Notes under the pieces: generated by a model | The model's database searches: none | What the model saw: the letters and a program-made list of their open reading frames with translations, nothing else | Told to the model about the DNA's origin: nothing | Position numbers and translations under genes: made by a program | In this document: positions 5,603 through 43,833 of the stretch, piece after piece | How positions within the stretch are numbered: the first letter of the stretch is position 1 | Layout: every line of letters starts with the position of its first letter | DNA from: an uncultured Clostridia bacterium | GTDB lineage: Bacteria > Bacillota > Clostridia > Christensenellales > Borkfalkiaceae | Assembly (NCBI GenBank): GCA_947631195.1 | Contig: CANRKK010000008.1 | Location: 1,052-65,051 of the forward strand | Length of the DNA stretch: 64,000 bases | Direction of reading: 5' to 3'

Positions 5603-5623
5603 AAATCACCTGCATTTACCGAA

Positions 5624-5652: not shown

Positions 5653-5676
5653 ACGTCGGTATGTTATTTTTTTAAA

Positions 5677-26940: not shown

Positions 26941-26972
26941 AAGCGGCGCAACCGTGAACGGTTGCGCCGCTT
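26941..26972. terminator. Terminator hairpin closing the 11-gene cluster (also downstream of the convergent araC-family gene)
   Basis: 14-bp stem aagcggcgcaaccg/cggttgcgccgctt with 4-nt loop. On the minus-strand transcript it is followed by AAAUAUUUUUUAUUUUA. Confidence 0.7.
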
Positions 26973-27351: not shown

Positions 27352-28491
27352 TTATTCGATTTTGACCGTCAACGTCTCGCCGCATATCTCCACGGAGATC
27401 TGCCCGCCCATCGCCAGCTTCTGCATAACCATCTTGACGGCGTTCATGGCCATCTTCATCTTTTCTTCCGCCGAAGAGCCCACGCACAGCGCAAACTGCA
27501 TCTCTCTTTTGCCCTTTTTAAGCTCCTCCTCGATAAAGCCCCTCAGCTCGTACAGGCTGTTCAGCCTCTTCAGGTTGCCGCCCGCCTGCGGTGCGGTTTG
27601 CCTCTGCGCGGGCTGCGGTTGGGGTTGGGGAGCGGGCCTGCCGTAAGGACGGGGTTGGGGTTGAGCCGTGTTTTGGCTCCCGTAAGGGCGGGGTTGAGCC
27701 GTGTTTTGGCCGCCGTAGGGGCGGGGGCGGACGGGCTGCGTCTGCCGCGAGTCCCGACTTTCCTCCTCACCCCACGTTTGTGTGCATGCGGGGAAGTGCG
27801 GCCTGTTCCACGCGTGGCTTGCAAGCATCTGGTCGTCCGTACGGTTGAAGTAGCGTTTGTCTACAAAACTGCGCGTAGGATTGGAGCCCAATATGCTCGT
27901 TGCGTCGAGATGATAATTTTTGCCCTTTATCTCTATGATATTCCATGCGTGCGGGCCGCCGCCCGACAGCTTTATGGAGCCGTCCACAAAGATGCACTTT
28001 ATATTGTTGCAGTCGCACAGATACTTTACGGCCCTGGCTATGCCCGAACACTGCGCCTTTTTGAAGTAGAGCGCCGACGCCGCGTTCTGGTTGTAAGTTA
28101 TGTCTATCTCGTAGACGGTGTTCTTTACAATCAGTTCGACGATATTGATTTCCGTCTGTTCGTCGTCAGCTCCCCTCACCTTTGAGGCCGCGGCTTCGAG
28201 GGCCGCCTGTATGGTCCGTATTTCGCCGTCGGAGTACAAGTTACGGAGCATCAACGCTATGCACGCCCCGCGGAAAGACCGCGTCATTTGCGCGGAGATG
28301 CGGCAATCCATCCAAAAAAGTTCGGAATGGTCGCAGTACACGGCGTTGTAAGCCGCGCTGAGGTCGTCGGGGTCGGTCAAATTTAAGTTGACAGAAGTCT
28401 TTTGTTTTTTGACCGCCTCAACTATTTCATCGTAGGCTGCGCCGAGCCGCCTGTCGAGTTTGCCGCGGTGATACTCATAAATATAAGCCAT
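27352..28491 (-). CDS. Transglutaminase-like (papain-fold Cys-His-Asp) protein with Pro/Gln-rich tandem-repeat linker and a small C-terminal domain
   Basis: 379 aa. Putative triad KKAQCSGIARAV (Cys148), GGGPHAWNII (His181), NYHLDATS (Asp196). Linker RPRPYGGQNTAQPRPYGSQNTAQPQPRPYGRPAPQPQPQP. Confidence 0.65.
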   Translation of the reverse strand: MAYIYEYHRGKLDRRLGAAYDEIVEAVKKQKTSVNLNLTDPDDLSAAYNAVYCDHSELFWMDCRISAQMTRSFRGACIALMLRNLYSDGEIRTIQAALEAAASKVRGADDEQTEINIVELIVKNTVYEIDITYNQNAASALYFKKAQCSGIARAVKYLCDCNNIKCIFVDGSIKLSGGGPHAWNIIEIKGKNYHLDATSILGSNPTRSFVDKRYFNRTDDQMLASHAWNRPHFPACTQTWGEEESRDSRQTQPVRPRPYGGQNTAQPRPYGSQNTAQPQPRPYGRPAPQPQPQPAQRQTAPQAGGNLKRLNSLYELRGFIEEELKKGKREMQFALCVGSSAEEKMKMAMNAVKMVMQKLAMGGQISVEICGETLTVKIE

Positions 28492-28500
28492 TGCTTATCC

Positions 28501-29979
28501 TTAAACCTTGAACTTGAGCGAAGGACAATTTTTGCCGATGAGCCACAGCACGCTGTCCTCTACCCTTACGGGCGTGAACTGCTTGCCGTTTTGGTTGTGG
28601 CCCAAAGGAGCGCAGGTGAAGAACCGCACGTCGGTAAACTTCTGCTTCAAGACGTGCACGAAGTTTGTTTCGCCGTAGTCCAAAAGGAACTTTTCGCACA
28701 CGGCGTTCGTTGCCTTTACCGCGTCCGCGCCCTTGTTGGAATTCATGTAGTTCGTAACCGCCGCGGGGCCTATCTTATCCTCCAAACCGGGGATATCCAG
28801 CTTGGTGAACACTACCGCGCACACCTTTTTGACCCGCGCGCCGTTTTTGTGCAGCATGTTGTCGAGGGTGCCCAAAAGCATCGTGGTCACCTCGTCCATC
28901 GGCATATCGCTCGCGCCGTAGCTGTAGGGATCAAAGGAAGGATCCTGCGCCAGCTCGTCGCGGTAGTCCTGAATGGAGAGAGGGTCGAGCACCACTATAA
29001 ATCCGTCGGCCTGCGTCAGACCTATCTGGGCAAGGTCGGTGTCGCTTGTGAAGATTTCGCCCGGCATATCGCACAGGGAAATAAAGTTGCCCACGTTGCC
29101 CTTGGGGGGATTTAAGTTGAACTGATAGTACTTCATCTGCATGTTGCTTGCAGAAGCGTCCGTCTTGGGGGGCGTATAGCCCTGCTCTATCGCGCTCATG
29201 TTGGTTTCATACAGGTCCTCGCGGTTGTCCGAAACGTTGGGCTTGTATGTAAATTCAAGATTATATTGGGGGGCTACGTTCTTCTCTATTTGGGAAATAG
29301 CCATGGTTATAAGGCAGGTTTTACCCGAAGAAGGGCCGCCGATTACGGGCACCCAAACCTCAACGTGCGCGCCCGCGTCCGAAAGGGGAGCGCCGCAGTG
29401 GGGGCAGAGGCCGTCCAACTTTTGTCTGCCGTTCAAGAAAGTGGTGGGCAGTTTTTCGCCGCACTCACATTCGCGCTTCAATATACCGTATTTGCTGGGT
29501 ATAAGGCGGGAATGTTCCACCCCGCAGGAGGGGCAGACATATACGGGCAAATCAAATTTGTGCTGGCACGCTGGGCAGCCGCTGGATATCTTCTTTATCT
29601 TTCTGTACAGCCAGTCGAGGAAGTTCACAAAGGTAAAGAAAAGATAGATAAAGAACATCGTGAGGGTCATCACAATGATGTAGAGCAGCGAGAATACGGC
29701 GCATATAGCGGGCGTAAACACTACGTTCAGCAATAATATGGCCAAAGACCAGCCGAACAGTACGGCTCGGAACAGCGAGCGGAAAAAGCCTGAAATGGGA
29801 GCTTCGAAGGTGATTATGTCGAGCACGCCGTCCTTTAATTCACCCGCGTTGTCCACAAACTTTTCCCAATAGTCGCCCATGCGGTCGAGCCACTTTTCGA
29901 ATACGTTTTTGATTACGGCTCCGCATTCCTTGTACACGTCGCCGAAAAAGTAATTCACTTGTGCAGGTTGTGTTTTCAT
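28501..29979 (-). CDS. Membrane-anchored zinc-ribbon P-loop GTPase (paralogue of 34390..35508)
   Basis: 492 aa. TM segments at about aa 65-120. Cys clusters CPACQHKFDLPVYVCPSCG and CECGEK..LCPHCG. G1 GGPSSGKT, G3 DMPGE, G4-like FTKLD. Confidence 0.7.
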   Translation of the reverse strand: MKTQPAQVNYFFGDVYKECGAVIKNVFEKWLDRMGDYWEKFVDNAGELKDGVLDIITFEAPISGFFRSLFRAVLFGWSLAILLLNVVFTPAICAVFSLLYIIVMTLTMFFIYLFFTFVNFLDWLYRKIKKISSGCPACQHKFDLPVYVCPSCGVEHSRLIPSKYGILKRECECGEKLPTTFLNGRQKLDGLCPHCGAPLSDAGAHVEVWVPVIGGPSSGKTCLITMAISQIEKNVAPQYNLEFTYKPNVSDNREDLYETNMSAIEQGYTPPKTDASASNMQMKYYQFNLNPPKGNVGNFISLCDMPGEIFTSDTDLAQIGLTQADGFIVVLDPLSIQDYRDELAQDPSFDPYSYGASDMPMDEVTTMLLGTLDNMLHKNGARVKKVCAVVFTKLDIPGLEDKIGPAAVTNYMNSNKGADAVKATNAVCEKFLLDYGETNFVHVLKQKFTDVRFFTCAPLGHNQNGKQFTPVRVEDSVLWLIGKNCPSLKFKV

Positions 29980-29989: not shown

Positions 29990-30259
29990 TCACGCTATGG
30001 CGCCCGCAACCCCGAAGATAATGGGGAAGCTGACAATTGCCGCTATCGGCAATATCGCAATTATGATAACTGCTGCGATGGTAAAGCCCTTTGCAAACGG
30101 ATTGGTGACTTCTTCCTTTACCGAGTTGATGTAGCTGATAGTTGCGCGGAAATACATGAACACCAATCCCGCAACGGCACCGACTGCCATTATCACCAAC
30201 AGAGTAGCAAGGAAAAATATCATAAACACAATGAATAATACAATTCCCAATACTAACAC
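29990..30259 (-). CDS. Small integral membrane protein (3 predicted TM helices)
   Basis: 89 aa, almost entirely hydrophobic (MLVLGIVLFIVFMIFFLATLLVIMAVGAVAGLVFMYF..). 10-nt spacer to the next gene. Confidence 0.55.
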   Translation of the reverse strand: MLVLGIVLFIVFMIFFLATLLVIMAVGAVAGLVFMYFRATISYINSVKEEVTNPFAKGFTIAAVIIIAILPIAAIVSFPIIFGVAGAIA

Positions 30260-30272: not shown

Positions 30273-31745
30273 TTATTTTATGAATTTCTTGCGTATGAAG
30301 AAGTAAACGGGCAGAAGCACGAGCATAATTACGCCGAGCGCTATGTTGTTGTTGGTAAAGCCCACGATGGCCAGCGCAATCAGTATGAGGTACGGGATAA
30401 GGCTGATTCTCCTCTTCAGTCTGCTCCAACGGCTTCCGCCTCTCCTGCCGCTTCTGCCGCCGCTCTTTGCGTTTCTCTCCGCCTTGCTCTGGCTTGCGCC
30501 GCCGCCCTGCGCAACGTTGTCGTCCTCGCTGAACTGTCCGAAAGGATTGTCTACAAAGTAATCAACTTCGCCGCTGTACGCGTTTACCCTTACGGTTACG
30601 CTCTTCTTGCCGCCCATGGATACCGTGAAGAAATAGAAGGGCACGAACACGTAGGAAAGTTCCTTTATGTCGGAAGCCTTGTCGTTATAGATGATCTCTA
30701 TGTATTTGGTATCCCAGTTCTTGGCCTTGTGGAAGGCTTCCTTTATCTCCTGTCTTGCGCCCTCGGTGGCATCCTTGGAGGAGAGCTCGATTGCCCTCTC
30801 TATAACGGCCTTTTGGCCAACGGGATGAATACGTACCCTGCCGTCCACATAGTTGCTTGTAAAGGTTGCGTTCTTGTAAACTTTCCACAGATCGCGCTGC
30901 GTCTGCTTGGTTTTGAAGGTTGCGCAGTAGTTGGTCCAGTACATATCTACTGTATAGTCCGTGCTGCCGCTGGAAACGGTGCTGTAGCTCGGGTTGTCGT
31001 ACTTATATCTTACGTTGGGGGTGCCCACTTCAACCGCGCACTTTACTATGGGCTGATATTCGAGCTGGGCCTGGGGCGCGCCCTTTAACAGCTTGCTGAT
31101 CTGCGCGTAGGTCAAAATCTTTTTGGTGGCCTTTTCCTCGAGGTTGGCCTTGGCTATAGACCACGCCTCCTCTGCCGACCTGTTGCAGGGCACGAAGGTG
31201 CTCGACTTGCCGTCGGAGGTGTTCTTTTGCCAGATATCCATCTCCGTCTTGCCGGTAAACACGCCGCGCTCCCTGCCTATGGAAGCATAGGTTTCGTCGG
31301 GCATGTATTCGCTGCCGAGGAATGCCGCCATATCGAAGCTGTCGTGTATCTCTTTCGTCTTTTCGGGATAGCCCTTCTGGAGCAGCACGCCGTAGAAGTA
31401 GTAGCTTTCGGCGTCAAACTTGTCGTGATAAGCAAACGCCTTGTCTGCGGCCGTCTGTGCAAACGTAGGGTCCTTTTTGTTCTTTGCAACGAGCTTTGTG
31501 AGAACGAAGAGATAGTCCTCTACCGCGTCCTGATCGGAGAGCGTGCCCGCTTCGTAGTAAGGAAGGGATTCGGCGTACTTGCCCTTTTCCACCCACAGAT
31601 ATTCGCCCCACTCTTCGCGGGCTTTCTGGTTACCGGCGTCAGCCGCTTCCTTGAGCTTTGCATAGCCCTTTTTGGGATTTTTGGGGAAACCGTTGGTCCC
31701 GTTTAAGAGGTTTTGCGCTTCTTGGTAAAGTTGATTTGCGTCCAT
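30273..31745 (-). CDS. Sel1/TPR-like repeat protein with C-terminal Arg/Gly-rich segment and two TM helices
   Basis: 490 aa. N-terminal helical repeats (..GYAKLKEAADAGNQKAREEWGEYLWVEKGKYAESLPYYEAG..). C-terminus ..GGRSGRRGGSRWSRLKRRISLIPYLILIALAIVGF..LGVIMLVLLPVYFFI. Confidence 0.6.
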   Translation of the reverse strand: MDANQLYQEAQNLLNGTNGFPKNPKKGYAKLKEAADAGNQKAREEWGEYLWVEKGKYAESLPYYEAGTLSDQDAVEDYLFVLTKLVAKNKKDPTFAQTAADKAFAYHDKFDAESYYFYGVLLQKGYPEKTKEIHDSFDMAAFLGSEYMPDETYASIGRERGVFTGKTEMDIWQKNTSDGKSSTFVPCNRSAEEAWSIAKANLEEKATKKILTYAQISKLLKGAPQAQLEYQPIVKCAVEVGTPNVRYKYDNPSYSTVSSGSTDYTVDMYWTNYCATFKTKQTQRDLWKVYKNATFTSNYVDGRVRIHPVGQKAVIERAIELSSKDATEGARQEIKEAFHKAKNWDTKYIEIIYNDKASDIKELSYVFVPFYFFTVSMGGKKSVTVRVNAYSGEVDYFVDNPFGQFSEDDNVAQGGGASQSKAERNAKSGGRSGRRGGSRWSRLKRRISLIPYLILIALAIVGFTNNNIALGVIMLVLLPVYFFIRKKFIK

Positions 31746-31763: not shown

Positions 31764-34379
31764 TTAATTTTTCCAAACTTTGTTTTTGACCGAGAAATCG
31801 AGATAGGCCTTGGCCTGCGATTTCAGCTTGTTGTTCCCCGAAAGTTGTTTTGCGAGTTTTTTGGTCTTGCCTCCGCCCAACTCGGTAAAATACACTCCGA
31901 GGAAAGTTTTTATTTCGTTGAGGTCGGTGCGGTTCACGAGATAGATGAGGTAGTCCGCCGCCTCTTTGAAATTGATTTTTGAGGCAAATTTCTTTGCCAT
32001 GTCCTGTATGAACGGGTTGTTTACGCCCACGTAGCCCGCCGCCCTTGCAAGGGGCGCGAACGCATTGTCCAAAACGTTGTCCACTTCGTCGGGCCGCTTT
32101 GTCACCATGCGGCAATACAGGTCGAATATTTCGTCGGTGTAAACCCTTGCAATCACCTTGTTGCCGTTGTCGTCGGCAAGCAGCATATTGTTTGCCAAAA
32201 GGCGGCAGACCTCGTCGAATATCGCGTTTTCGTTCCTTACGCCCAAGGCCTGGTGCAGCTTGTTGCCCAAATCCACCACCTTGTACGCCGCGGGATATTC
32301 GCCCGCCGTCGCGCGGTATTTTTCGGCGAAGTTGTCGATATCGGCGATCAGCCCCTTGTTTCTGCCCTTATACAGGTCCATCAAATCGCCCGTGTGCGCG
32401 CCGCCGAACACCGAGCAGATTATGTCGTATGCGCGCGCGCCGTCGCGGCCGGGCATGGAATATGCGCCGAAGTATGCGTTCCACGCGAGGGCCTGTTCGG
32501 CAAGCCTCTCGTAGTTGTGCTTCAGGCTGTCAAAATACTCCTCTAAAGCCTTGAGGAAGGTGCCGTTGGTATCCTTGCCCTTCAGATACACGTTTGTATA
32601 GTACTTTTTGAGGTCGGCCTCGGTGTGCGGTCTGTCTGCAAAGGTGTATGCAAACATGTCGTCTATAAAGTTCTGCACGGCGGGGTCGTTGCCCGAGAGC
32701 GCCGCAAGGCCGTTTATATCCAGATTCTTTTTGTTGGAATAGGCGAGGAACTTGTTTTTGAACACGGGATCGGACCCGCAGTTCTTGATGAGAATAATCA
32801 CGCCCTTGTTGCAGTCCTGCGGAGAAATTTCGTCCAGCACGGACAGAACGTAGTCGTAGTCCCTTATATTGAGCGCGCCGTTGGGCGAGGCGAGGTCGTC
32901 TATAACCACCCTGTCGAGCAGTGCGGAGCCCGTCTTTTGCTTGGTTATCGCGTTAAGTTCGCGCACGGGCTTGAGAATTTTGGCCTGCAGCCTGTCGAGG
33001 AAGTAGGCCTCCACCACCTTGACATCGCCCGCGGGAAGGGCCTCGGCGCACATTCTCGCAACGAAGTACTTTACAAATTCGTTGGACCTGTTGGCCGAGA
33101 GATAGCCCCTGAGCGAGCCGTGTTTGCCCGTTATGTAGGTCAGGATATCCTGCGCGGGGAACACCATCTTGCCGCAGAACTCCGTATAGCGCGAATCGAA
33201 CAGCGACGGATCGGTTGCGCCGCAGGCCTCCACCGCCGCAAGATAGCCCGAAAGCACATACTCGCGCGAGGAGATGTCGTTCTCGTACATATAACCGTAG
33301 AATCTTGCGTTTTCGAGCACGTCGAAGTTGCGCGCCCGCTCAAACGCGGCAAGAACGGAGGTGACGGAAGTTTTGTCGCCGCCGTTTGCAAGCACGCGCT
33401 CTGCCACGGACATGAGCTCCTCAGAGGAAGCGAAAACCGCCAGATCGGCATTGAAAAAGGAATTGAGGGTGAGGGCGTAGTCGGGGTCGTTGCCCGCAAG
33501 CGCGAGATATGCGTCTATCTTCGCAGCTTCGGCGCGGGCGGAGTCCACGGACCGCGCAAGAGCGTTCGCCACGTTCTCTACATACCTGCCCACCGTCACC
33601 TTGTTGTTGATAATCTTTTCTTTTATGCTGTAGACGAGGTCGCCCGCAAGCATCGCCGTTCTGTAATTTACTACGCCGCCCGGCTTTAACGCCTGCAGGA
33701 CGAAGCTGTTGGACTTGCTTATGGAATAGGTGGAAAAAGTGACCTTATCCAGCACGGCGGCGGGCAGACACTTTGCCACCCCCTCAAACCAATACACGAG
33801 CGGGGAAGGATCGTCGTAGATATATACCGTCTTGTTGGTCCTTATGCCCTCCAGCACGGCCGCAACCAGATACTTTAAAATCTGCAACCTTTCGGGATTG
33901 TTGAAAAACGCCGAGAGCGAAGCGTTGTCTACGGGCTGCGCCTGCGCGGGAACCTCAACTTCGGGAAGGGGCGGGGGATTGCTGTCCGCGTTGGCCTCCT
34001 CGTCCGTAAGTCCCGTCTTGAAAATAGGGCTGCCGATATAGTCAAACGCGTTGAAGTCGGGCTTTTGGTCAAGCACAAAGGCGTGTATTATGTAATTGCC
34101 CTGCCTGCCGCTGTAGTCCCTGCCTATATATGTGGACTGGCCCAGACAATACATGCCCGAGGGCAATCTGAAGAACGCGCAGCCGCGGGGGAACATTGTT
34201 TCTATCTGTTCGGGCGTGGGCGCATAGGGCAAACCCGCGGGCGGCAGGTATTTTAACGCCGTCTGGATGGCTGCCGAATCGTCGGCGGAAATCCCCGCGC
34301 TCATGGAATATACCATAAAGCCCTTCGATGGGGAGTTTCCGTTTTTCCAGGACGTATAAATAAACTGTTTTGCCTTCAT
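31764..34379 (-). CDS. Large uncharacterised protein; N-terminus resembles the GAP1-N (GTPase-associated protein 1) domain
   Basis: 871 aa. N-terminus KQFIYTSWKNG..KGFMVYSMSAGIS..YIGRDYSGRQGNYIIHAFVL, followed by a long helical region. Lies between the two GTPase genes. The GAP1 assignment is from memory of the family pattern and has not been searched. Confidence 0.55.
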   Translation of the reverse strand: MKAKQFIYTSWKNGNSPSKGFMVYSMSAGISADDSAAIQTALKYLPPAGLPYAPTPEQIETMFPRGCAFFRLPSGMYCLGQSTYIGRDYSGRQGNYIIHAFVLDQKPDFNAFDYIGSPIFKTGLTDEEANADSNPPPLPEVEVPAQAQPVDNASLSAFFNNPERLQILKYLVAAVLEGIRTNKTVYIYDDPSPLVYWFEGVAKCLPAAVLDKVTFSTYSISKSNSFVLQALKPGGVVNYRTAMLAGDLVYSIKEKIINNKVTVGRYVENVANALARSVDSARAEAAKIDAYLALAGNDPDYALTLNSFFNADLAVFASSEELMSVAERVLANGGDKTSVTSVLAAFERARNFDVLENARFYGYMYENDISSREYVLSGYLAAVEACGATDPSLFDSRYTEFCGKMVFPAQDILTYITGKHGSLRGYLSANRSNEFVKYFVARMCAEALPAGDVKVVEAYFLDRLQAKILKPVRELNAITKQKTGSALLDRVVIDDLASPNGALNIRDYDYVLSVLDEISPQDCNKGVIILIKNCGSDPVFKNKFLAYSNKKNLDINGLAALSGNDPAVQNFIDDMFAYTFADRPHTEADLKKYYTNVYLKGKDTNGTFLKALEEYFDSLKHNYERLAEQALAWNAYFGAYSMPGRDGARAYDIICSVFGGAHTGDLMDLYKGRNKGLIADIDNFAEKYRATAGEYPAAYKVVDLGNKLHQALGVRNENAIFDEVCRLLANNMLLADDNGNKVIARVYTDEIFDLYCRMVTKRPDEVDNVLDNAFAPLARAAGYVGVNNPFIQDMAKKFASKINFKEAADYLIYLVNRTDLNEIKTFLGVYFTELGGGKTKKLAKQLSGNNKLKSQAKAYLDFSVKNKVWKN

Positions 34380-35526: not shown

Positions 35527-38500
35527 TTATAAATTTATTACTTCTTTCATCTGGACGTTGGCGGCCGCGCCGTCCGCTATGAACATGGCAAGTTTGAACA
35601 TCTTGCCCATAGGCGGCACTTTTACCGTCGCCTTGCCCACGTATTTGCCGTGGGAGAACATGCCCTTTTTGAGCTGTACTCCGCTGACTCTCTCCACCAT
35701 CTCGCCCACGTTTTTGTTGAGCGGGCGGGGGTTGCCCTTGACCAAAACGAAGTCGGGCAAATCCACCTCGGCGTCGGCCTCGAACTTGATTGTCACCGCA
35801 AAGGGTTTGGCGGGCGAAGGCTCGTATTCCAAAGCATACTTTACTATCTGCTTTTTTCTGTAGTCGATGGGGTCGGGCAGCTGCACGGGCGCGCACATGG
35901 CTATCTCCGAGCTGGAGACCCCCTTTATCTTGCCGAACAGCGTCACGTACGACACCGTGTCGGCGCGGAGCTTGAGCGATATCTCCCCGTCCCTCTTCAA
36001 TTTGTCTGCGGGGAAGTTGAACGTGTCGCCGGGGCGGTCGGGCGCGTCGGCAAACTCCTTGTTGCTCACGTGCACCACGAGCTCGGTTATAACGCTGTCG
36101 AGCGAACAGGTAATTTTGAGCGTGCCGTTGTCCTCGGTGTACTTAACGTTGCTTATGCCCTTTATCGAGGACATAAACACGGGGTCGGAGGCGTTGAACA
36201 GCTGCTCGTTGACGTTTACCGCGTACACGTATCCCGTGAAGTTTGCGGGCAGGCTGAACCCGTAGGCGCCGTTGCCGTTGTCATAGGCGGACAGAAGTTT
36301 TGCGTTCCCCTTGTTTTTGGAGAACACCTCTATCTTTTCCACCTTTTTGAGGGGTATGGGCAACCTTTCGGGCGAACACCAGAACTGCGCGTTCTTCTCT
36401 ATGTTTTTGCCCGTCGCCTCGCACACGCCGCCCGGCAGCTGGCCCACCTTTAATCCCTCTACGGCCTTGGGGAAGTAGAAGGGCTTGAAGAACATCTGTA
36501 TGCCCGAAGAAAATACTTCCTTGCCGTCTATATCGTACACGCACCTGACAAAATAGCTGTTGCCGGCCGCGTCGCAGCCGCCGTCCTCGAACCCGTCGGC
36601 GTTCGCGCCGTGGAAGGCCGCGCCGTTTTCGGCGGGAGCGGAGCCCGCCGCCTTCAATACGTCTATTCTCTTTACGTTGGAGGGGCTGCTCCACTTCACG
36701 TGGATCTTGCCCTCGGTCATCTCCTGCTTGTAGTTGGAGACGTTCAAAAGCACCACCACGGGGCTGTTGCAGGCAACCACCGCCGTCTGCACGCCGAATC
36801 TTTCGGCAAACACGCCGTAGTAGTAGTTGACGGCCGCGCCGGGGTTGTTGTCCTCAAAATAGTTGATTGTAAGCCCCTTTACCATTGGCGTGCCGTCTGC
36901 GGGGCTCTTGGGAACGGAGCCCGCCTTTCTCACCACCGTGTAGCTTATCATTCCGTCGGCCTTGCCGTCCCACTGAACGTTCACCTTGCCGTCGTCGGTG
37001 ACGCGGCAGCGCACGTTTTGCGGGGCCTGCGGGGGATATTTTTTGATCAGCTGCTGTGCCTCGAGGTTGTCGGCACATTCCTCCAAAGCCTTGGCCGCAA
37101 AGTTGATAATCTGCCCCACGTCCTGCGTTCTTTTAGCCGATTCGAGATATTGCGCCGACTTGGAAAGCCCCGCCTTTATCTTGTTTTTATAGGACTCTAT
37201 GTCGTCGGCGTTGTAGCCGGGCAGCGCGGTCGCTATCTCGCGCACCTTTGCCTCGGCCTTGTTGAGCTGTTTTATGACTATGAGTTTATCCACCTCGGCA
37301 ATCATCTCGCGGTATTGCTTCAGCATGGATTCTTCGGCCTTTTCCTTGGTGGCCACTTCCTTGTCGTAGAAAGCTATCTTTTTGGCCACTTCGGAGGTGG
37401 GCATCTTTTCATATCCGGGCACCGTGCTCTTTAAATTGTTGAGCGCCGTCTTTAAAGTGGGGAGGGGCGTCCTCGGGTTTTTGAACAGATTGCCCAGCTC
37501 GTTCACCTGTTTCTGGAAAACGGGCTGCATTTTGTCCGTCATGGAGCACTTGGGGCACACGCGCGCGCCCGCCCCGTAGCGGATAGGGTTCTGGCAGTTC
37601 CAGCAGAGCACGGTGAGCGGTTTGCCGCAATGGGGGCAGACCGTTATGTTTTGCGTAACTATGTAGGGCTTGCCGCAATCGGGGTAGGGGCAGAGCTCTA
37701 TCTGCATCTTTGCGCCTATGGAAGCGTCGCTCGACAACTTTAAGTTGAGGGCGTTGAGCATCGCGCCTAAATCTTCCTCGGCGACCTCCAACGAGCAGCC
37801 CGTATTTTTTACTATTAATTCAAAGTATTTGAGGTATTCCTCCGCGCGGATAACCACTATGCCGTTATCGCTGCGCGCCTTGAGGGGGAAGTACACGGCG
37901 TCCTTTATCTGCAGGTACTTCTGGTACTGCGCCCTGCCGGGTTTGCCGCTGTTGCCCTCCTCCTTGAATATCGTCTCCGCACAGCCGTACAGCTGTTTCA
38001 AAGAGGGGCCCACGCCCTTCTTGAGCGAAGTTTTGGCGGCGTCCCTCTGCATGTACGACTTCAGCCGGTCCTGTATCGTTTTGAGGTCGGCGGTAATGGG
38101 CAAGTCAAGCAAATCGTAAAGGTTTGTGATTTTGCTGTCGCCGAGGCCCTTTAAATATTTTTCTATTTCGTTATACGTATGGAAGTCGAACCTGTTCTGG
38201 GTGTCGTCCACATACTTTACGCCCTTTGTGAGCAGGTTTTTGAGGCCGGCCTCTATCTCGTCCACCGACATCTTGTTCTTGTCGGCAACCTGCCTGACTT
38301 CGCTCTTATATATGATTCCGCGCTCGCACAGGCTGACGAGGAACTGGATTATCGGCTCCATCTTCAGTTTTTTATAGAGAGCCGCCTCCCTCGCCCTGCC
38401 GCCGCTGTTGGGCCTGTATGTGCCCGAGCTTTCGTCGTAGGTGGAGTCGTTAGCCAAAACCTCTATGGCGTCCTTTTTCAAATCCTTGCCGAGGCGCACC

Positions 38501-38658
38501 GAAACGGGGTCGTCGCTGTTCGCCTTGGTGTTGCACAGATTGTTTATTTTAGACGCTATAACCTTGGGGTCGGTCTCGTTTAAATCGATTTTGAAGGCGT
38601 TGTAGTAGTTAAAACCGATATCCGCCAATTCTTCGGGTGTACGAACGTTAGATGCCAT
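35527..38658 (-). CDS. 1043-aa multidomain protein: degenerate J-like segment, double zinc ribbon, coiled coil, C-terminal Fn3/Ig-like beta-sandwich array
   Basis: aa 178-250 NLYDLLDLPITADLKTIQDRLKSY..GRAQYQKYL resembles J-domain helices, but no HPD motif is visible. aa 323-371 CPYPDCGK..CPHCGK..CWNCQ..CPKC. aa about 545 onward PPQAPQNVRCRVTDDGKVNVQWDG..ISYTVVRK is Fn3-like. Confidence 0.6.
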   Translation of the reverse strand: MASNVRTPEELADIGFNYYNAFKIDLNETDPKVIASKINNLCNTKANSDDPVSVRLGKDLKKDAIEVLANDSTYDESSGTYRPNSGGRAREAALYKKLKMEPIIQFLVSLCERGIIYKSEVRQVADKNKMSVDEIEAGLKNLLTKGVKYVDDTQNRFDFHTYNEIEKYLKGLGDSKITNLYDLLDLPITADLKTIQDRLKSYMQRDAAKTSLKKGVGPSLKQLYGCAETIFKEEGNSGKPGRAQYQKYLQIKDAVYFPLKARSDNGIVVIRAEEYLKYFELIVKNTGCSLEVAEEDLGAMLNALNLKLSSDASIGAKMQIELCPYPDCGKPYIVTQNITVCPHCGKPLTVLCWNCQNPIRYGAGARVCPKCSMTDKMQPVFQKQVNELGNLFKNPRTPLPTLKTALNNLKSTVPGYEKMPTSEVAKKIAFYDKEVATKEKAEESMLKQYREMIAEVDKLIVIKQLNKAEAKVREIATALPGYNADDIESYKNKIKAGLSKSAQYLESAKRTQDVGQIINFAAKALEECADNLEAQQLIKKYPPQAPQNVRCRVTDDGKVNVQWDGKADGMISYTVVRKAGSVPKSPADGTPMVKGLTINYFEDNNPGAAVNYYYGVFAERFGVQTAVVACNSPVVVLLNVSNYKQEMTEGKIHVKWSSPSNVKRIDVLKAAGSAPAENGAAFHGANADGFEDGGCDAAGNSYFVRCVYDIDGKEVFSSGIQMFFKPFYFPKAVEGLKVGQLPGGVCEATGKNIEKNAQFWCSPERLPIPLKKVEKIEVFSKNKGNAKLLSAYDNGNGAYGFSLPANFTGYVYAVNVNEQLFNASDPVFMSSIKGISNVKYTEDNGTLKITCSLDSVITELVVHVSNKEFADAPDRPGDTFNFPADKLKRDGEISLKLRADTVSYVTLFGKIKGVSSSEIAMCAPVQLPDPIDYRKKQIVKYALEYEPSPAKPFAVTIKFEADAEVDLPDFVLVKGNPRPLNKNVGEMVERVSGVQLKKGMFSHGKYVGKATVKVPPMGKMFKLAMFIADGAAANVQMKEVINL

Positions 38659-38673: not shown

Positions 38674-40731
38674 TTAAATTTCCTTTGCTATATTTCCCGC
38701 TATATCGCCAAACGCTTTGGCAAGATTGTTTATGTCTATCATCTGCGCGCAGCCGGGGGAGGCTATGCGGCTGAGGAAGTCGTAGTCCGCGTCGCCCACG
38801 CCAACCGCGTATATGAGCACGCCGTCCGACTTGAGCTCCTCCGCCTCGCGGATGGCGACGTCCGACTTTTCCCAGCAGCCGTCCGTGAGGACTATCGCCG
38901 CCTTTATAGTGTTGCCGCCGCTGAACTCCCTGCCGTACTTTTTAAACAGCCGCTCGCCGTTGGTGCCGTAGCCGCAAACGCCGTCCACCTGCACCTTCTT
39001 TATGGCGCGCTGCACCGCGCTGTACTTGTTTGTTATCCCGCACACAAGCTCGTTGGTCTTTGCAAACCGCACGATGCCCACCGACGTGTTTGAAAAATCG
39101 CAGGTGGATATAAACCGCTCCATCGCGCGCTGGGCCTCCTCTATGGGCCCGTCGTCCATACTGCCCGACACGTCCACTATCAAGAGTGCCTCTATCTTGC
39201 GGTTCTTCATCTCTTCGCGCTCGGCCTTGAGGCGGGCTATAATCTCGTCGAGGCTCTCGGAGAGCTTTTCCTGTATCACTTTGAGCGCCCTGCCCGAGCT
39301 GTCCTTTGCGGTGACTTCCACTATGCCGTTCTGGTTGTAGAGGAAGGACACCGAGAACACGTTCTTCTGCCCGCTCACAAGTCCCGTAACCGTGTATTTG
39401 TAGAGCAGCGAGCACTCGAAGGGGTCCTCCGTTTCGCCCTGCAGCACGTACACTTCGCAGCGGTCGCTCCGCACCTCGTACTTTTTGTCCTTGGCCACGC
39501 CTATCTTGCTGTTTTTGGCAAGTATTATACTGTTTATGTAGTCCGTTTCGCTGTCGTTTAAGGTGAGCATGCCGAGGCTGTGCGCCGTGATGTCCTCTAT
39601 GTCGGCGCCGCGTATCGTCAGTCCTCCCCTCGCGCCCGCGGCGGCAGCCCCGCCGAGGGTGAGCGAGCTGGCCGTGCAGAGTTCAGCCTGCATCGCCGCG
39701 CCCGAAGCTACAATCGTGTCCACGTTGATGTTTTTGGTCACGGGTTCCTTGCCGTAGGACTTGACTATCATGTTTTTGACCTGCGGCATTCTCGTGGACC
39801 CGCCGACGAGCACCACCTCGTCTATATTCTTCCAGCCGAAGCCGGGAATGGTCTTGCGCAGGTCCGCAAAGCACTTGTCTATAAGCATCGTCGTCTGGTT
39901 CAAAAGGCTGAGGGTCTTTTCCTCAAACTCCTGCCGCGTGATGGTGTACTTTCCCACGAAGCCGCTGCACCGCACCACTACCGTAGTTTCGCTCATGGCG
40001 GTCAGCTTTTTCTTGGCTTCCTCGCACTGGACCTGAAGTTCGGCCGCCTCCTCGGGCATGCCGTTTATATCTATGTTGTATTCTTCTTCGAATTTGTTTG
40101 CAAAGTAATTGAACAGTATGCTGTCCCAGTTTTTGCCGCCGAGCGTATGGTCGCCGTTCGTAGTCAGAACCTTGACGTGCGTGCCGTCTATCGCGGCTAT
40201 CGTAACGTCGAACGTTCCGCCGCCCAAATCGTAGACCATGGCGTTCTTTTTGCCCTGCCCCGTTAGGCCGTAGGCTATTATCGCCGCCGTCGGCTCGTTT
40301 ATAATTTTCAGCACGTTGAAGCCCGCGCGCTTGCCGGCGTTCAAAGTTGCCGTGCGCCTCGGCTCGTCGAAGTAGGCGGGCACCGTTATTACCGCACCGT
40401 CTATCTTTACGCCGTTTGCGCTCTCTATGTCCCTCTTGAGTTCACGGAGGAAAAGTGCAGAGATGTCCTCTGCACTGTATTCTTTGCCGTCGATGTAGAA
40501 GGAATAATCCTCCCCCATCATATTCTTATAAAAAGCCACGCTGTTGCAGTTGCCCTGCGACATCATATTTTTGGCTTCGTTGCCTATGTAAACTCTTCCG
40601 TCTTCGACGCAGGTGACCGAGGGGGTTATCTTTTCGTCCTCGCCGTTCTTTAAAACGACTACTTCCCCCAACTTTTTATCGAAGTAAGCAACCGCAGAAT
40701 AGGTTGTTCCCAAATCAATTCCAACGTTCAT
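38674..40731 (-). CDS. Hsp70-family ATPase fused to a C-terminal von Willebrand A (vWA) domain
   Basis: 685 aa. Hsp70 NBD motifs VGIDLGTTYSAVA, YDLGGGTFDV, LVGGSTRMPQV, and an SBD-beta-like segment. Then LLIVDVSGSMDDGPIEEAQ (MIDAS DxSGS) ..IVLTDG..IYAVGVG, which is a vWA fold signature. Confidence 0.85.
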   Translation of the reverse strand: MNVGIDLGTTYSAVAYFDKKLGEVVVLKNGEDEKITPSVTCVEDGRVYIGNEAKNMMSQGNCNSVAFYKNMMGEDYSFYIDGKEYSAEDISALFLRELKRDIESANGVKIDGAVITVPAYFDEPRRTATLNAGKRAGFNVLKIINEPTAAIIAYGLTGQGKKNAMVYDLGGGTFDVTIAAIDGTHVKVLTTNGDHTLGGKNWDSILFNYFANKFEEEYNIDINGMPEEAAELQVQCEEAKKKLTAMSETTVVVRCSGFVGKYTITRQEFEEKTLSLLNQTTMLIDKCFADLRKTIPGFGWKNIDEVVLVGGSTRMPQVKNMIVKSYGKEPVTKNINVDTIVASGAAMQAELCTASSLTLGGAAAAGARGGLTIRGADIEDITAHSLGMLTLNDSETDYINSIILAKNSKIGVAKDKKYEVRSDRCEVYVLQGETEDPFECSLLYKYTVTGLVSGQKNVFSVSFLYNQNGIVEVTAKDSSGRALKVIQEKLSESLDEIIARLKAEREEMKNRKIEALLIVDVSGSMDDGPIEEAQRAMERFISTCDFSNTSVGIVRFAKTNELVCGITNKYSAVQRAIKKVQVDGVCGYGTNGERLFKKYGREFSGGNTIKAAIVLTDGCWEKSDVAIREAEELKSDGVLIYAVGVGDADYDFLSRIASPGCAQMIDINNLAKAFGDIAGNIAKEI

Positions 40732-40871: not shown

Positions 40872-42473
40872 TTACTGTTGCAGCTTGAGCGAGCTCTCCA
40901 TGCCCACCATGTTGGTGTCGTTGCCCAGACGAACGGGAGTAACTTTCTGCTTGGGACCGCCGTTTACCGAAAGTTCTACTTCCAGCGTGCCGTCCTGGTC
41001 CATTACGAAGGTAACCTCCAAAGGAGTGCCCTTGGGTACGGGGTTGGGGAACTGTATGGTGGAGTCCTCATACATCTTGGTGCCCTCTTCCTCGGGGCAG
41101 CTCTCCTCGACGCTGTTGTTCTCGAGTATCTCGATGAGCGCCGCGCTCTGGTTGTTGACGCTTGCCGAGAAGTTGCGGCTTACGGCGCAGGGCTTTTCGG
41201 TATCCTTGAGGATTATGTTGCTCAGAATTCTCTGGTTGTTTTCGTCGTACGCGATGAGGCCGTAGCTCTTGGTGCACTTTACCTTAACCACGAAGTCTCT
41301 GCCCTGGGGATCGGTGAACTCCGTCGCGCCGCCCAAAGAGAGTTCGGACGAACCGCCGCCCGCAGAGGAGCCGCTGCCGTCGCTCGTCTTGGTGGTCGCA
41401 TAGTTTGCAAAACTTGCCATAAGGGCCGCGCCCATCGCAACTGCCTTGTCGGGCTCAAACGAGGAGATGGGCTTGCCGTATTCGGCCTCGAGACGGGCCT
41501 TTACCTGAGGCATTCTGGTGGAACCGCCGACGAGGATTATCTCGTCTATGTCGTTCATGCTCATGTTCTTCGCGTTGAGCATGTTGTCAATGAGGCTTAT
41601 CGTCTGGTTGAGTTTGCTCTCGGTTATCTCGTCAAACTTCTCCCTCGTGATTTCGATTCTCTCTTTCTGGCCGTCGTAGTTTACGGTCATGGTCGCGCTC
41701 TCCTTGGAGGTGAGGAGCTTCTTGGTCTTTTCGGTGTTCTCGCTGAACATCTGGATACATTCGGGATCGCACGCCATTTCGTCGGGGTCGCAGCCCGTTC
41801 TGCTGCAGAATTCCTGCGTGATGTATTCGGTCAGTTTAGCGTCCCAGTCCTTGCCGCCGAGCAGGTGGTCGCCGCCCGTGGTTATAACTTCCATCTCGCG
41901 CTTGTCGCCGACGAAGTTCAGCTTCATGACCGTGCTGTCGAACGTGCCGCCGCCGAGGTCGTAGATAAGGATGGTCTTGTTCATGTCCTCCTGCTTGGAA
42001 TAGCCGTACGCCAGCGCGGCCGCCGTGGGCTCGTCGAGTATCTGCAACACGTTCAGGCCCGCCTTTTCCGCCGCAAGCCTCGTCGCCGCTCTCGCGTGGT
42101 CGCCGAAGTATGCGGGGCAGGTAACTATCGCGCCGTCGATGTCGTCGCCCAACTTATCCTTTGCGTCTCTCACGAGCTTCTCGAGAATGTATCTCGATAT
42201 AGCCGCGGGGGAATAGTCCGTGCCGTCAACGTTGAGGGTGTAGTCGGGGTCGCCCATGTAGTTCTTTACGCGCTCAACTATACATTCGGGCTGCAAACCG
42301 CCCTCCTGCCGAGCCGTGGAACCAACCACCACTTCGCCGCCGCTGATAAATACAACCGACGGGGTTGTCTGCTCCCCCTCAGAGTTGTCTATTATCTGCA
42401 CTCTGCCCGTCTCGTCAACGTACGCTACGCACGAATACGTTGTTCCCAAGTCAATGCCTATCTTCTTTCCCAT
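40872..42473 (-). CDS. Hsp70-family ATPase lacking the helical lid
   Basis: 533 aa. IGIDLGTTYSCVA, YDLGGGTFDS, LVGGSTRMPQV. C-terminal SBD-beta-like region of about 150 aa ending ..PLEVTFVMDQDGTLEVELS.. with no lid or EEVD tail. Confidence 0.85.
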   Translation of the reverse strand: MGKKIGIDLGTTYSCVAYVDETGRVQIIDNSEGEQTTPSVVFISGGEVVVGSTARQEGGLQPECIVERVKNYMGDPDYTLNVDGTDYSPAAISRYILEKLVRDAKDKLGDDIDGAIVTCPAYFGDHARAATRLAAEKAGLNVLQILDEPTAAALAYGYSKQEDMNKTILIYDLGGGTFDSTVMKLNFVGDKREMEVITTGGDHLLGGKDWDAKLTEYITQEFCSRTGCDPDEMACDPECIQMFSENTEKTKKLLTSKESATMTVNYDGQKERIEITREKFDEITESKLNQTISLIDNMLNAKNMSMNDIDEIILVGGSTRMPQVKARLEAEYGKPISSFEPDKAVAMGAALMASFANYATTKTSDGSGSSAGGGSSELSLGGATEFTDPQGRDFVVKVKCTKSYGLIAYDENNQRILSNIILKDTEKPCAVSRNFSASVNNQSAALIEILENNSVEESCPEEEGTKMYEDSTIQFPNPVPKGTPLEVTFVMDQDGTLEVELSVNGGPKQKVTPVRLGNDTNMVGMESSLKLQQ

Positions 42474-42505: not shown

Positions 42506-43492
42506 TTATTTTTTGAATTTATACACTTCCGTTTTCTGCAGGAAAATCACTTTCCCCTCGAAAACGTATGCGTCGGTGAGTTTTGCCGCTATCTTTCTGT
42601 CGAGCGCGGGGTCGTCCGTCTCCACGGCCTTTAACAGCCTGTGCTGGGAGGTGTTGAACTCGTCGTCGGTAACCAGCACGTCGCAGCCCATAAGGGAGAG
42701 GGCCGCCTCCAATTCATTCACGGCGTGCGTCAAAATTTCGGCATAGAGTTGCTTTGCGTCCCCTTCGCCGTCCACAGACCCGAGCTTGCCGCCGACATAC
42801 TCCTTTAACCCCTCCATCTTTTTGAGGACGGGATATATGTACAGCAACTTGTTGTCGGCGTCTATCGACCCGCTCGCCTTTGCAAGCGCAAGGCAGGCCG
42901 CGTCGAGCGTCTCGTTGTTTTTCAGCTCCTCCATTATCTCCGCGTGATAACGCCCGAGCAGTTCTTCGAGGGTGGGGGCGGGCGCTTCGGCCTGTTCCCC
43001 GCTCTCTGCGGCGGGCTCCTCTTCGGCTGCCGCCTCTCCGGGCGCGCTGTCGGTCACGGCAACTTCGCCGTCGGCAACTTCGGCGGGCTCCTCTTTTTCG
43101 CTCTGCCCGTATGTAAGGGGTTCCGAAAGGCTGTGCCCGTTGTAAACCCAGCCGCCGTCCTCCTCCGAAACGCCGTTTTGCAGCATCATCTCGGTGAAGT
43201 CCTCGAGAAGATATCCGAGGTTCTTTTTAACCTTTTCGGCGTCGTAGTCATACTTGGCCGTGTTGGCAAGATCCTTTTTCAAGTCCTCCCTGAACGCTAT
43301 GACGGCAAGCGCGAAGGGCTTGAACGCCCACGCGGTGAAGCCGTCGCGGTAGTGCTGCAGGTCCTTGCCGAGCTGGGCGATTATATCGTCCTTGGACTTG
43401 GTGTACCTCAATAGCTGTTTGATCTTGTTGAAGTACTCCTCTAAGAGCCGAGCCTCAACATTTTCGCCTGTTACGTTTTTTTCTTCTTCCAT
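42506..43492 (-). CDS. GrpE-like nucleotide-exchange-factor candidate with acidic low-complexity insert
   Basis: 328 aa, first gene of the cluster, GGAGG RBS. C-terminus ..DDEFNTSQHRLLKAVETDDPALDRKIAAKLTDAYVFEGKVIFLQKTEVYKF resembles the GrpE beta-domain (FDP..HeAv..GY..g.v.R.a.V.V). Acidic linker EKEEPAEVADGE..AAAEEEPAAESGEQAE. Confidence 0.5.
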   Translation of the reverse strand: MEEEKNVTGENVEARLLEEYFNKIKQLLRYTKSKDDIIAQLGKDLQHYRDGFTAWAFKPFALAVIAFREDLKKDLANTAKYDYDAEKVKKNLGYLLEDFTEMMLQNGVSEEDGGWVYNGHSLSEPLTYGQSEKEEPAEVADGEVAVTDSAPGEAAAEEEPAAESGEQAEAPAPTLEELLGRYHAEIMEELKNNETLDAACLALAKASGSIDADNKLLYIYPVLKKMEGLKEYVGGKLGSVDGEGDAKQLYAEILTHAVNELEAALSLMGCDVLVTDDEFNTSQHRLLKAVETDDPALDRKIAAKLTDAYVFEGKVIFLQKTEVYKFKK

Positions 43493-43804
43493 AAGACCTC
43501 CCGGGGTGATTTTGGCTTAGCGGCGGGGTTCCGCACACTATTATATACTTGCCGGCCGCGGGGACGAAACTTTAAAGTCCCCGTCATGCAACCGAAGTAT
43601 ATCAAACAAAGTGCTAAAAAAGTGCTAAAATAAGCCCCGCCGTCCGAAAAAATTTATAAATTTTTCGGCGTTTTATCGCGCGTTTTCGCTTATTTTTGGA
43701 ATTTATGCCCATTACGGGCATTTTTTTACAAAAAAACGCACCCCCCCCCCGCCGTTTTTTGCGAATGGGAGCGCTTTTGTACAAAATTGCCCTAAGGCTT
43801 TTTT

Positions 43805-43833
43805 ATTATATAATAAAACCCGCGCGTTGTCAA
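43805..43833 (-). promoter_or_regulatory. Consensus sigma-A-type promoter upstream of the Hsp70/GTPase cluster
   Basis: Minus strand TTGACA (43833-43828), 17-nt spacer, TATAAT (43810-43805). This would give a leader of about 300 nt before ATG 43492. Confidence 0.45.

Follow-up and report, generated by a model that had tools for sequence, protein, structure and literature searches.

The locus described here raises the question of what an Hsp70-type ATPase does with a von Willebrand factor A (vWA) domain at its C-terminus. The stretch analysed, called the window below, comprises 64,000 nucleotides of an uncultured Clostridia bacterium of the Borkfalkiaceae (assembly GCA_947631195.1, contig CANRKK010000008.1, positions 1,052 to 65,051 of the forward strand). 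An earlier note, made from the letters alone, had described one of its gene products as an Hsp70 ATPase fused in frame to a vWA domain and had interpreted the fusion as chaperone-gated, metal-dependent protein capture. The fusion was found to be genuine and is a standard part of an already catalogued operon type. The gene encoding the Hsp70-vWA protein is the third of a roughly 16.9 kb, ten-gene predicted operon, all of it on the same strand with short intergenic gaps, and judging by gene content this operon very probably belongs to the HSP70-GrpE theme of the GAP1-N2 GTPase-centric conflict systems. The best overall explanation, to which we would give a probability of about 0.55, is that the Hsp70-vWA protein acts in this predicted conflict operon as an ATP-driven clamp or adaptor.

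Domain structure of the Hsp70-vWA protein

The Hsp70 signatures on which the earlier note had based a full nucleotide-binding domain were all found at the places given there (VGIDLGTTYS at amino acids (aa) 3-12, DLGGGTFD at aa 168-175 and LVGGSTRMP at aa 308-316). The vWA part contains LLIVDVSGSMDD at aa 516-527, VLTDG at aa 614-618 and AVGVG at aa 642-646. The protein, its domains and its metal ion-dependent adhesion site (MIDAS) lie as follows.

38674..40731, minus strand: gene 3, Hsp70-vWA fusion protein, 685 aa, ATG start, one uninterrupted open reading frame (ORF)
39667..40731, minus strand: Hsp70 nucleotide-binding domain (NBD), aa 1-355 (catalytic residues; Foldseek matches to DnaK/BiP)
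39262..39621, minus strand: beta-sandwich substrate-binding domain (SBD-beta), aa 371-490 (DnaK alignment; AlphaFold2 strands 371-488)
39199..39261, minus strand: single connecting helix, aa about 491-511 (AlphaFold2 helix 494-509; DnaK alignment)
38677..39198, minus strand: vWA domain, aa 512-685 (Pfam VWA; Foldseek)
39160-39174, 38962-38964 and 38881-38883, minus strand: MIDAS of the vWA domain, D520-x-S522-x-S524, T590 and D617, respectively

The Pfam family HSP70 (PF00012) matched the protein with E=3e-104 (best stretch aa 81-512), and VWA and VWA_2 matched with E=3.4e-15 (aa 517-660) and E=1.7e-10, all three above their gathering cut-offs. When PDB sequences were searched, aa 3-508 aligned with Geobacillus DnaK (2v7y; phmmer, E=2e-75), and the last 188 aa matched collagen VI, BatB (3ibs) and anthrax toxin receptor 2 in their vWA domains. 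A full-length AlphaFold2 model built from a 38-sequence alignment had a mean predicted local distance difference test (pLDDT) score of 86.6, with values below 50 only at aa 361-368; this is a Gly/Ala stretch within the low-confidence Gly/Ala linker (aa 356-370) that precedes SBD-beta. Foldseek placed the whole model with DnaK/BiP (E about 1e-46). For a separate model of aa 490-685 (196 aa, pLDDT 87.5), the top PDB matches were all vWA or I-domains (CMG2, TEM8, BatB, TRAP and integrin alpha I; E about 1e-12, TM-score 0.70-0.78). Because only such domains appeared among these matches, the suggestion that the C-terminal 180 aa might not adopt a vWA fold was dismissed, and the profile comparison gave the same answer.

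A beta-type substrate-binding segment had also been proposed, and this agreed both with the DnaK alignment and with the modelled strands at aa 371-488. Inside SBD-beta lies a family-specific motif, D[IV]T[AS]HSLGM. The short coiled linker said to follow it does exist, but as one helix (aa 494-509) that corresponds to the start of the DnaK lid: it aligned with the first lid helix, and the alignment with DnaK stopped at aa about 508-517. Beyond this helix the helical lid (SBD-alpha) is absent, and the vWA domain starts at aa 512. Since the vWA domain follows directly after the single helix, it may be concluded that it stands in place of lid helices B-E of DnaK.

Homologues were sought among 5.8 billion clustered proteins from NCBI, JGI, ENA and Logan, with clusters taken at 90% identity. 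This survey of the Hsp70-vWA architecture returned at least 120 homologue clusters with 49-80% identity, and the operon neighbours proved to be conserved (see below). All 120 clusters among the matches listed covered 100% of the query and had Pfam HSP70 and VWA matches, and databases annotate the relatives only as 'Hsp70 family protein' or 'DnaK'. The counterparts of DnaK D8, K70, E171, D194, T199 and D201 were invariant in the alignment with the Hsp70-vWA protein, and these six catalytic positions were conserved in 120/120 of the listed clusters. The reference in this alignment was E. coli DnaK, and the classical residue numbers fell on invariant columns. MIDAS residues D520, S522, S524 and D617, plus T616, were likewise invariant in every listed cluster. 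The NBD is thus apparently active, that is, catalytically competent as predicted from its conserved residues. The vWA domain, which was recognised by Pfam, PDB and Foldseek matches and which has the intact MIDAS start described before (D520, S522 and S524) together with T590 and D617, is predicted to be MIDAS-competent and may bind a ligand in a metal-dependent manner. With the ATPase and MIDAS residues invariant in this way, chaperone-gated, metal-dependent capture is a reasonable hypothesis.

An assembly or annotation artefact, in which an Hsp70 gene had been joined to a separate vWA gene, was considered and refuted, and its probability is practically nil. In addition to the 120 listed clusters, 394 matches below 1e-10 were obtained when the SBD+vWA half was compared with representatives at 50% identity; the best 149 of them comprised 94 proteins with NBD, SBD and vWA, 25 SBD+vWA fragments and a remainder of multi-vWA proteins. 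The two parts also shared one ORF in 78 of 80 metagenome loci. Near-identical sequence was present in rabbit-gut and other gut metagenome runs, and the junction at 39230-39300, where read support had been called for, was crossed by contigs of four independent rabbit/gut metagenome runs with neither joints nor indels (for example, a contig of 807 nucleotides from run X3 spans 39086-39892).

The protein nevertheless departs from DnaK: subdomain IB is shorter by about 23 residues, and the L1,2 loop of SBD-beta is longer. The residue R167 of DnaK contacts the Asp of the His-Pro-Asp (HPD) motif of DnaJ; its counterpart was Lys in 120/120 listed Hsp70-vWA homologues and was variable in Hsp70b, the product of the neighbouring gene 2. 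The NCBIfam equivalog scores were 313 bits against a cut-off of 648 (NF001413) for DnaK and 274 against 708 for HscA. Because these scores lie far under both cut-offs, it was concluded that the Hsp70-vWA protein is not a housekeeping chaperone.

The operon, its class and its relatives

Kaur, Burroughs, Iyer and Aravind (eLife 2020, PMC7159879, section 29; the statements below refer to this part of the article) describe GAP1-N2 systems with one zinc-ribbon GTPase, one transmembrane GTPase, a GAP1 downstream of a GTPase and an FNIII-repeat component, and distinguish three non-overlapping themes of linked genes. The second of these, the HSP70-GrpE theme, accounts for about 14% of neighbourhoods, occurs in actinobacteria and firmicutes, and is marked by HSP70 and GrpE genes, to which another HSP70 is sometimes added, together with an FNIII protein that carries a fused DnaJ or TPR. 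With this theme the window operon shares two DO-GTPase2 genes (one product with N-terminal zinc ribbons, the other with transmembrane segments and zinc ribbons), a GAP1 with N2 directly downstream of a DO-GTPase, and a Firmicute host. It also shares HSP70 and GrpE, the second HSP70 and probably a large repeat protein with a DnaJ-like domain.

In four respects the loci differ from that account. Fusion of HSP70 to vWA is not mentioned in the cited part of the text, whereas it is present in the window operon. The second HSP70 is said there to lack a peptide-binding domain, whereas Hsp70b aligns with SBD-beta of DnaK. The domain corresponding to 'DnaJ' lacks HPD in the window operon, and the core of Hsp70-vWA, Hsp70 and GrpE was also found without DO-GTPases or with MoxR instead. 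What goes beyond the cited text is therefore the replacement of the lid by vWA, the absence of HPD from the J-like partner, and the portability of the core, including a MoxR-coupled variant. In the literature searched, only Kaur et al. mention DO-GTPase or GAP1-N2. The term 'Hsp70-vWA' or variants of it occurred in no paper of that literature. The earlier note was thus right about the domains and about a fusion that had not been described functionally, but it overlooked the catalogued operon type; the contrast with MoxR-vWA pairs that it drew is the framing of Kaur et al. (PMC7159879), who regard these systems as analogous to MoxR-vWA.

The other features of the operon, in the direction of transcription, are as follows.

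43805..43833, minus strand: candidate operon promoter, TTGACA-17-TATAAT (12/12 sigma-70 consensus match only)
42506..43492, minus strand: gene 1, GrpE-like protein, 328 aa, putative nucleotide-exchange factor
40872..42473, minus strand: gene 2, Hsp70 paralogue Hsp70b, 533 aa (Pfam HSP70, 1.9e-94)
35527..38658, minus strand: gene 4, J-like/zinc-ribbon/FNIII-like protein, 1043 aa
34390..35508, minus strand: gene 5, DO-GTPase with N-terminal Cys-rich zinc ribbons, 372 aa (DO-GTPase2, PF19993, 9.3e-8; DO-GTPase1, 2.4e-5)
31764..34379, minus strand: gene 6, GAP1 protein, 871 aa (GAP1-N2, PF20013, 1.5e-25; GAP1-M, PF20014, 1.5e-6)
30273..31745, minus strand: gene 7, variable 490-aa protein (basic stretch, C-terminal transmembrane helix, weak PepSY match)
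29990..30259, minus strand: gene 8, small hydrophobic membrane protein, 89 aa (from its translation)
28501..29979, minus strand: gene 9, second DO-GTPase, with N-terminal transmembrane helices and zinc ribbons, 492 aa (DO-GTPase2, 1.6e-11; DZR)
27352..28491, minus strand: gene 10, transglutaminase-like protein, 379 aa (Transglut_core, 6e-4; NCBIfam transglutaminase-related, 3.8e-17)
26941..26972, minus strand: candidate operon terminator, a 14-bp stem (10 GC) followed by a T run, the strongest terminator-like site of the region

The gene order was conserved in ten independent contexts, namely the window and the loci L001, L003, L006, L008, L010 and L090-L093. The common order starts with GrpE-like, Hsp70 and Hsp70-vWA, continues with a protein of about 1006-1045 aa, DO-GTPase2 and GAP1-N2, and ends with a small ORF and the second DO-GTPase2, which is followed in some loci by a transglutaminase-like or LRR gene. 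The nine further contexts came from exact-protein look-ups or from a profile scan of genome contigs; the latter, run with the full-length alignment, gave mostly canonical DnaK among the matches listed, and L010-L013 were informative. L010 is the cultivated Metabacillus litoralis, L001 is a metagenome-assembled genome (MAG) of a termite-gut Treponema, and L003, L006, L008 and L090-L093 are gut MAGs. In every close locus a homologue of gene 4 stood immediately downstream of the Hsp70-vWA gene. The flanks of the operon differed in every genome, and its neighbours included a phage-type integrase (L093), a serine recombinase (L092) and a Mrr_N-helicase gene (L169).

When metagenomes were scanned for the SBD motif D[IV]T[AS]HSLGM, 80 loci were obtained, a sample biased to motif-bearing gut and termite metagenomes, and the neighbouring genes were scored by domain-only profiles made from orthologues. 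Downstream flank was available up to about 9.4 kb, and inserted cassettes can move GAP1 beyond this range. The following counts were obtained.

vWA on the same ORF: 78/80 metagenome loci, the other two being truncated
Second Hsp70: 48/48 loci with >=3 kb of upstream flank
GrpE-like gene: 47/48 loci with >=3 kb of upstream flank
J-like/zinc-ribbon/FNIII gene: 48/54 loci with >=3.3 kb of downstream flank
DO-GTPase: 35/38 loci with >=8 kb of downstream flank
GAP1-N2: 30/38 loci with >=8 kb of downstream flank

Five loci depart from the common arrangement. A Pseudomonadota MAG (L013:1204-8404) encodes, in this order, the Hsp70-vWA protein, GrpE and Hsp70, then a J-like membrane protein devoid of HPD and finally a TPR-zincin protein, with no DO-GTPase on its 10-kb contig, and a Deltaproteobacteria MAG (L012:9929-14099) has Hsp70-vWA, GrpE and Hsp70 before the contig ends. 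On a metagenome contig (L173:5514-14949), GrpE, a BNR/sortilin protein, Hsp70-vWA, Hsp70 and a membrane protein with SH3_3 and PEGA domains are encoded, with no GTPase within 9.4 kb. In these three versions, which are free of DO-GTPase, GrpE scored as canonical. In L155 the order is rearranged, with DO-GTPases on both sides. On the metagenome contig Ga0207874_1000896 (L169:468-14929), GrpE, Hsp70, Hsp70-vWA and the J-like/zinc-ribbon/FNIII protein are followed by a bpMoxR AAA+ ATPase (PF20030, 2.5e-48) in place of DO-GTPase/GAP1, with two unannotated large proteins alongside; just upstream of this module is a gene for a Mrr_N + UvrD/SLFN-like helicase. This rare arrangement suggests that the Hsp70-vWA module can serve a MoxR ternary-type core. 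From the five exceptions it follows that the conserved unit consists of Hsp70-vWA, Hsp70 and GrpE, usually with a J-like protein, and that the switch core served by this unit is exchangeable.

Inserted genes were seen as well. In L006 (15291-19052) and L090 (16104-19400), a cassette lies inside the operon between the gene 4 homologue and the DO-GTPase gene. It encodes a TraG/VirD4-like coupling ATPase of about 445 aa (T4SS-DNA_transf, TrwB_AAD_bind and TraG-D_C), unannotated proteins of 403 aa and 226-243 aa in both loci, and one of 137 aa in L006. In L092, a gene for a 619-aa TraG-like protein (4760-6619) and clpP are located upstream.

Among the partner genes of the window, gene 1 had no Pfam match in its own right. 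Pfam GrpE was found in 3/5 orthologues (best 1.8e-6), and the Metabacillus orthologue gave 1.3e-13. Its conserved C-terminal block, 'FDTxKHxILK...YTDCY..GKVIY.SKVDVYK', resembles the GrpE beta domain; the GrpE-like profile returned nothing significant from PDB, where a match to ubiquitin (E=0.27) was dismissed as chance. Hsp70b consists of an NBD, a Gly/Ser-rich linker and a divergent beta domain, with neither lid nor vWA. It keeps the catalytic residues, its NBD is 43% identical to that of the Hsp70-vWA protein, and it also scores below the DnaK and HscA equivalog cut-offs.

The product of gene 4 starts with a helical region. A J-like domain follows at about aa 175-250, and after two zinc ribbons (C323...C371) the chain continues as a coiled coil and then as beta-rich repeats of FNIII-like type. 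When its family profile was compared with PDB, many J domains matched at positions 173-241 with E of 0.003-0.8 (Sis1 8eod at 0.0034, DNAJA3 and DnaJ), whereas the window protein itself had no Pfam DnaJ (PF00226) match. A second J-like helix pair, in degenerate form, seems to be present in the N-terminal 70 aa ('FNYY.AF.ID..ETD...I'), where the Metabacillus orthologue has 'NHPRD'. FNIII signals were weak (fn3 at 0.078 in 1/5 orthologues, Fn3-like 3mpc at 0.26 and a faint Fn3_SaeA in L091). DZR matched the ribbons in 5/5 orthologues and TerY_C in 4/5 (best 5e-4). The ribbons lie at 37546-37692 (aa about 323-371); TerY proteins themselves consist of vWA and TerY_C. The third GAP1-N2 theme (kinase/PP2C/vWA) resembles a TerY-P triad, and a vWA domain together with a TerY_C-like ribbon may be a constant element across the GAP1-N2 themes.

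Both DO-GTPases have a DxxGE Walker B motif. The translation of gene 5 contains the Walker A motif 'GAKASGKS' and 'DTAGE', and that of gene 9 contains hydrophobic N-terminal segments, CxxC pairs and the Walker A motif 'GGPSSGKT'. Gene 6 starts 11 nucleotides past the end of gene 5. The product of gene 7, with a repeat-like N-terminus, was matched by phmmer solely in the identical contig L005 and in none of the related loci, where the corresponding slot holds an LRR_5 protein or nothing; it may therefore be a variable sensor or effector slot. Like gene 8, a small ORF of 59-99 aa is found just before the transmembrane DO-GTPase gene in L001, L003, L091, L092 and L093, and in L008/L009 an ORF of 60 aa precedes the gene for a 503-aa DO-GTPase2. 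A transglutaminase-like gene occupies the position of gene 10 in L008/L009 and, as a faint Pfam match, in L093. No AAA+ or MoxR gene was found in the window operon by the Pfam scan.

The candidate promoter lies about 310 nucleotides upstream of the GrpE-like start. In the leader, a run of ten G (minus strand, 43741-43750) beside a hairpin at 43705-43721 could suffer slippage or assembly error. The rest of the window is ordinary gut-anaerobe chromosome. Besides a histidine phosphatase, a hybrid sensor kinase, a MATE pump and an AraC regulator, it encodes an amylase, a pullulanase and a 4-alpha-glucanotransferase. A starch/glycogen utilisation cluster extends over 1.6-20.4 kb (amylase, pullulanase, 4-alpha-glucanotransferase and an ABC permease), and at 14452-17493 it includes a gene for a 1013-aa protein with Listeria-Bacteroides repeat (Flg_new) domains.

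The proposed mechanism and the alternatives

In the mechanism proposed here, which we consider plausible with the odds somewhat against it, the Hsp70-vWA protein would serve a dedicated Hsp70 machine as its clamp and adaptor. Binding and hydrolysis of ATP by the NBD would open and close the beta domain, and the GrpE-like exchange factor would reset the nucleotide state. The HPD-less J-like domain, carried on the FNIII scaffold, would tether or modulate the cycle rather than stimulate it classically. The vWA-MIDAS, situated where the lid of other Hsp70s closes over the client, would form a metal-dependent latch with an acidic residue on a client or partner protein. Such a latch on an ATP-driven clamp would allow the Hsp70 nucleotide cycle to decide whether a membrane-proximal complex is assembled or released, with the DO-GTPase pair and GAP1 switching that complex on or off. 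In function the module would then correspond to a MoxR-vWA pair and would serve an immune-like system as a thresholding switch; the parallel with MoxR-vWA is strengthened by the MoxR-coupled variant L169. A conflict role for the operon is indicated indirectly by its variable location, the nearby integrases, the variable accessory genes and the swapping of its core.

A broader and distinctly more tentative proposal is that the Hsp70-vWA protein, the lidless Hsp70, the GrpE-family protein and the HPD-less J-like protein constitute an unrecognised, self-contained class of Hsp70 machine. In it the MIDAS-vWA would replace the lid as a metal-dependent client latch, and the whole would be a portable cassette that plugs into DO-GTPase/GAP1-N2 in most loci, MoxR in L169 and no such core in L013 and L173. 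It might provide the threshold or effector-deploying step of an immune-like system.

Several observations weigh against an ATP-driven clamp in a conflict operon. Position 590 of the MIDAS was T in 68 and N in 52 of the 120 listed clusters. The hydrophobic interdomain linker VLLL of DnaK is replaced by D-I-E/Q-D-I (DIED/DIQD), so allosteric coupling may differ from that of DnaK; just upstream of this segment, after the Gly/Ala stretch with pLDDT below 50, is a conserved L-x-I. HPD is absent from the gene 4 protein of the window, which has 'YMQRDAAK', and from its orthologues in L001, L003, L006, L008, L010 and L013. The earlier note had named GrpE-like and J-like neighbours, and both are present. 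With no HPD in the J-like protein, it cannot be presumed that the cycle is stimulated in the canonical DnaJ manner. None of the PADLOC defence models matched the nine large operon proteins; the sole hit, weak and sub-significant, linked the coiled coil of the 1043-aa protein to ZorA (E=0.003). A tblastn search with the SBD+vWA half found no match in phage and plasmid collections. The literature searched held no experimental paper on any DO-GTPase/GAP1 system. Because no further paper was found there and no PADLOC model exists, the class is to be regarded as catalogued from computation and experimentally uncharacterised.

Three other explanations were weighed against the clamp. According to the first, which is unlikely, the operon encodes a polymer or scaffold effector: the two Hsp70s would form NTP-dependent multimers instead of cycling clients, and the vWA domain would be a cross-linker or docking site. 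In other GAP1-N2 systems this slot holds a tubulin pair, to which the Hsp70 pair is thereby likened; the idea is close to the cited part of Kaur et al. 2020 (PMC7159879). The Hsp70 fold is indeed actin-like, as the MreB_Mbl Pfam matches reflect, and lidless BiP crystallises as an oligomer (7a4u in the Foldseek list). However, the conserved chaperone kit, comprising SBD-beta, a GrpE-like gene in 47/48 loci and a J-like domain, is hard to explain in this way, and the catalytic and interdomain architecture is DnaK-like.

Rather improbable, too, is an operon that has nothing to do with conflict and encodes a biogenesis or remodelling machine for an envelope or developmental structure, in which the Hsp70-vWA protein would fold or insert FNIII, transmembrane and transglutaminase-like parts. 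Such a role would fit the membrane-associated components (the transmembrane DO-GTPase, the 89-aa membrane protein and the transmembrane-anchored 490-aa protein), the recurrence of the transglutaminase-like protein and the absence of PADLOC, phage or plasmid matches. It would also fit L173, in which the module, free of DO-GTPase, is paired with an SH3_3 + PEGA protein; SH3_3 and PEGA-type domains are classed as peptidoglycan-binding in the cited part of Kaur et al. (PMC7159879). In contrast, the operon occupies another chromosomal site in every genome, at times beside an integrase or recombinase, its accessory genes vary (the 490-aa protein, LRR_5 and the TraG-like cassette), and its core can be swapped for MoxR, with a Mrr_N-helicase gene adjoining. 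The variable site, the accessory genes, the core swap and the adjoining helicase gene are hallmarks of an accessory or conflict locus and not of a housekeeping pathway. Finally, a general stress paralogue of DnaK that carries vWA for metal sensing and has no specific partners is very improbable, since strong DnaK similarity and relatives annotated 'DnaK' or 'Hsp70 family protein' are set against a score of 313 bits with a cut-off of 648, the loss of about 23 aa of subdomain IB and of the lid, and strict operon linkage.

If the clamp mechanism of the Hsp70-vWA protein is true, it would be the first Hsp70 with a lid replaced by a metal-dependent protein-binding domain. Client capture would be coupled to the Hsp70 ATP cycle in a new way, and AAA+ MoxR-vWA would have a counterpart with an actin fold. 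DO-GTPase/GAP1 systems occur widely in bacteria of gut and soil, and it has been proposed that they are prokaryotic analogues of the NTP-switch immune complexes of eukaryotes. Practical starting points are offered by the cultivable Metabacillus litoralis (L010), by sites for point mutants at K69 (ATPase) and D520/S522 (MIDAS), and by the compact core of three or four genes that occurs on its own.

Comparison with known systems

The Hsp70-vWA machinery resembles DnaK/DnaJ/GrpE in the catalytic residues of the NBD, in SBD-beta and in having a GrpE-family and a J-fold partner. It differs in scoring below the equivalog threshold, in the deletion of about 23 residues of subdomain IB, in the replacement of linker and lid, in the J protein without HPD and in the change of R167 to K.

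Type III CoCoNuT systems have the Hsp70-like CnuD/CnuCD, of which CnuD has degenerate ATPase motifs and is predicted to bind RNA (Bell et al., eLife 2024, PMC11090510). As in the loci studied here, a non-housekeeping Hsp70 NBD/SBD is found there in a predicted defence operon with genes for a GTPase and for vWA proteins. However, CoCoNuT has a McrB-like GTPase and encodes its TerY-like vWA separately, whereas here the ATPase motifs are intact and the vWA domain is fused. The idea that the CoCoNuT Hsp70-like proteins are the same thing was rejected on account of their degenerate ATPase motifs and the vWA in a separate gene.

Among AAA+ ATPases, fusions to vWA are known in Mg-chelatase BchD/ChlD and in Rea1/midasin, where a C-terminal MIDAS/vWA on the same chain engages a partner protein. 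The Hsp70-vWA protein is similar to them in that an ATPase module and a C-terminal vWA share one chain, but its ATPase belongs to another superfamily and has no sequence relationship to theirs. The AAA+ module of BchD is inactive, whereas the NBD of the Hsp70-vWA protein looks active to judge from its residues.

There are also parallels in organisation with the MoxR-vWA pairs, that is, RavA-ViaA, CbbQ-CbbO, NorQ-NorD and CoxD-CoxE, and with the ternary MoxR-vWA conflict systems. In both cases an NTP-driven remodelling motor is combined with a MIDAS vWA adaptor, both are found in predicted conflict operons, and in L169 a relative of the Hsp70-vWA module adjoins a bpMoxR gene. Unlike in the MoxR-vWA pairs, the motor here is an actin-fold Hsp70 and not an AAA+ ring, and motor and vWA are carried on one polypeptide.

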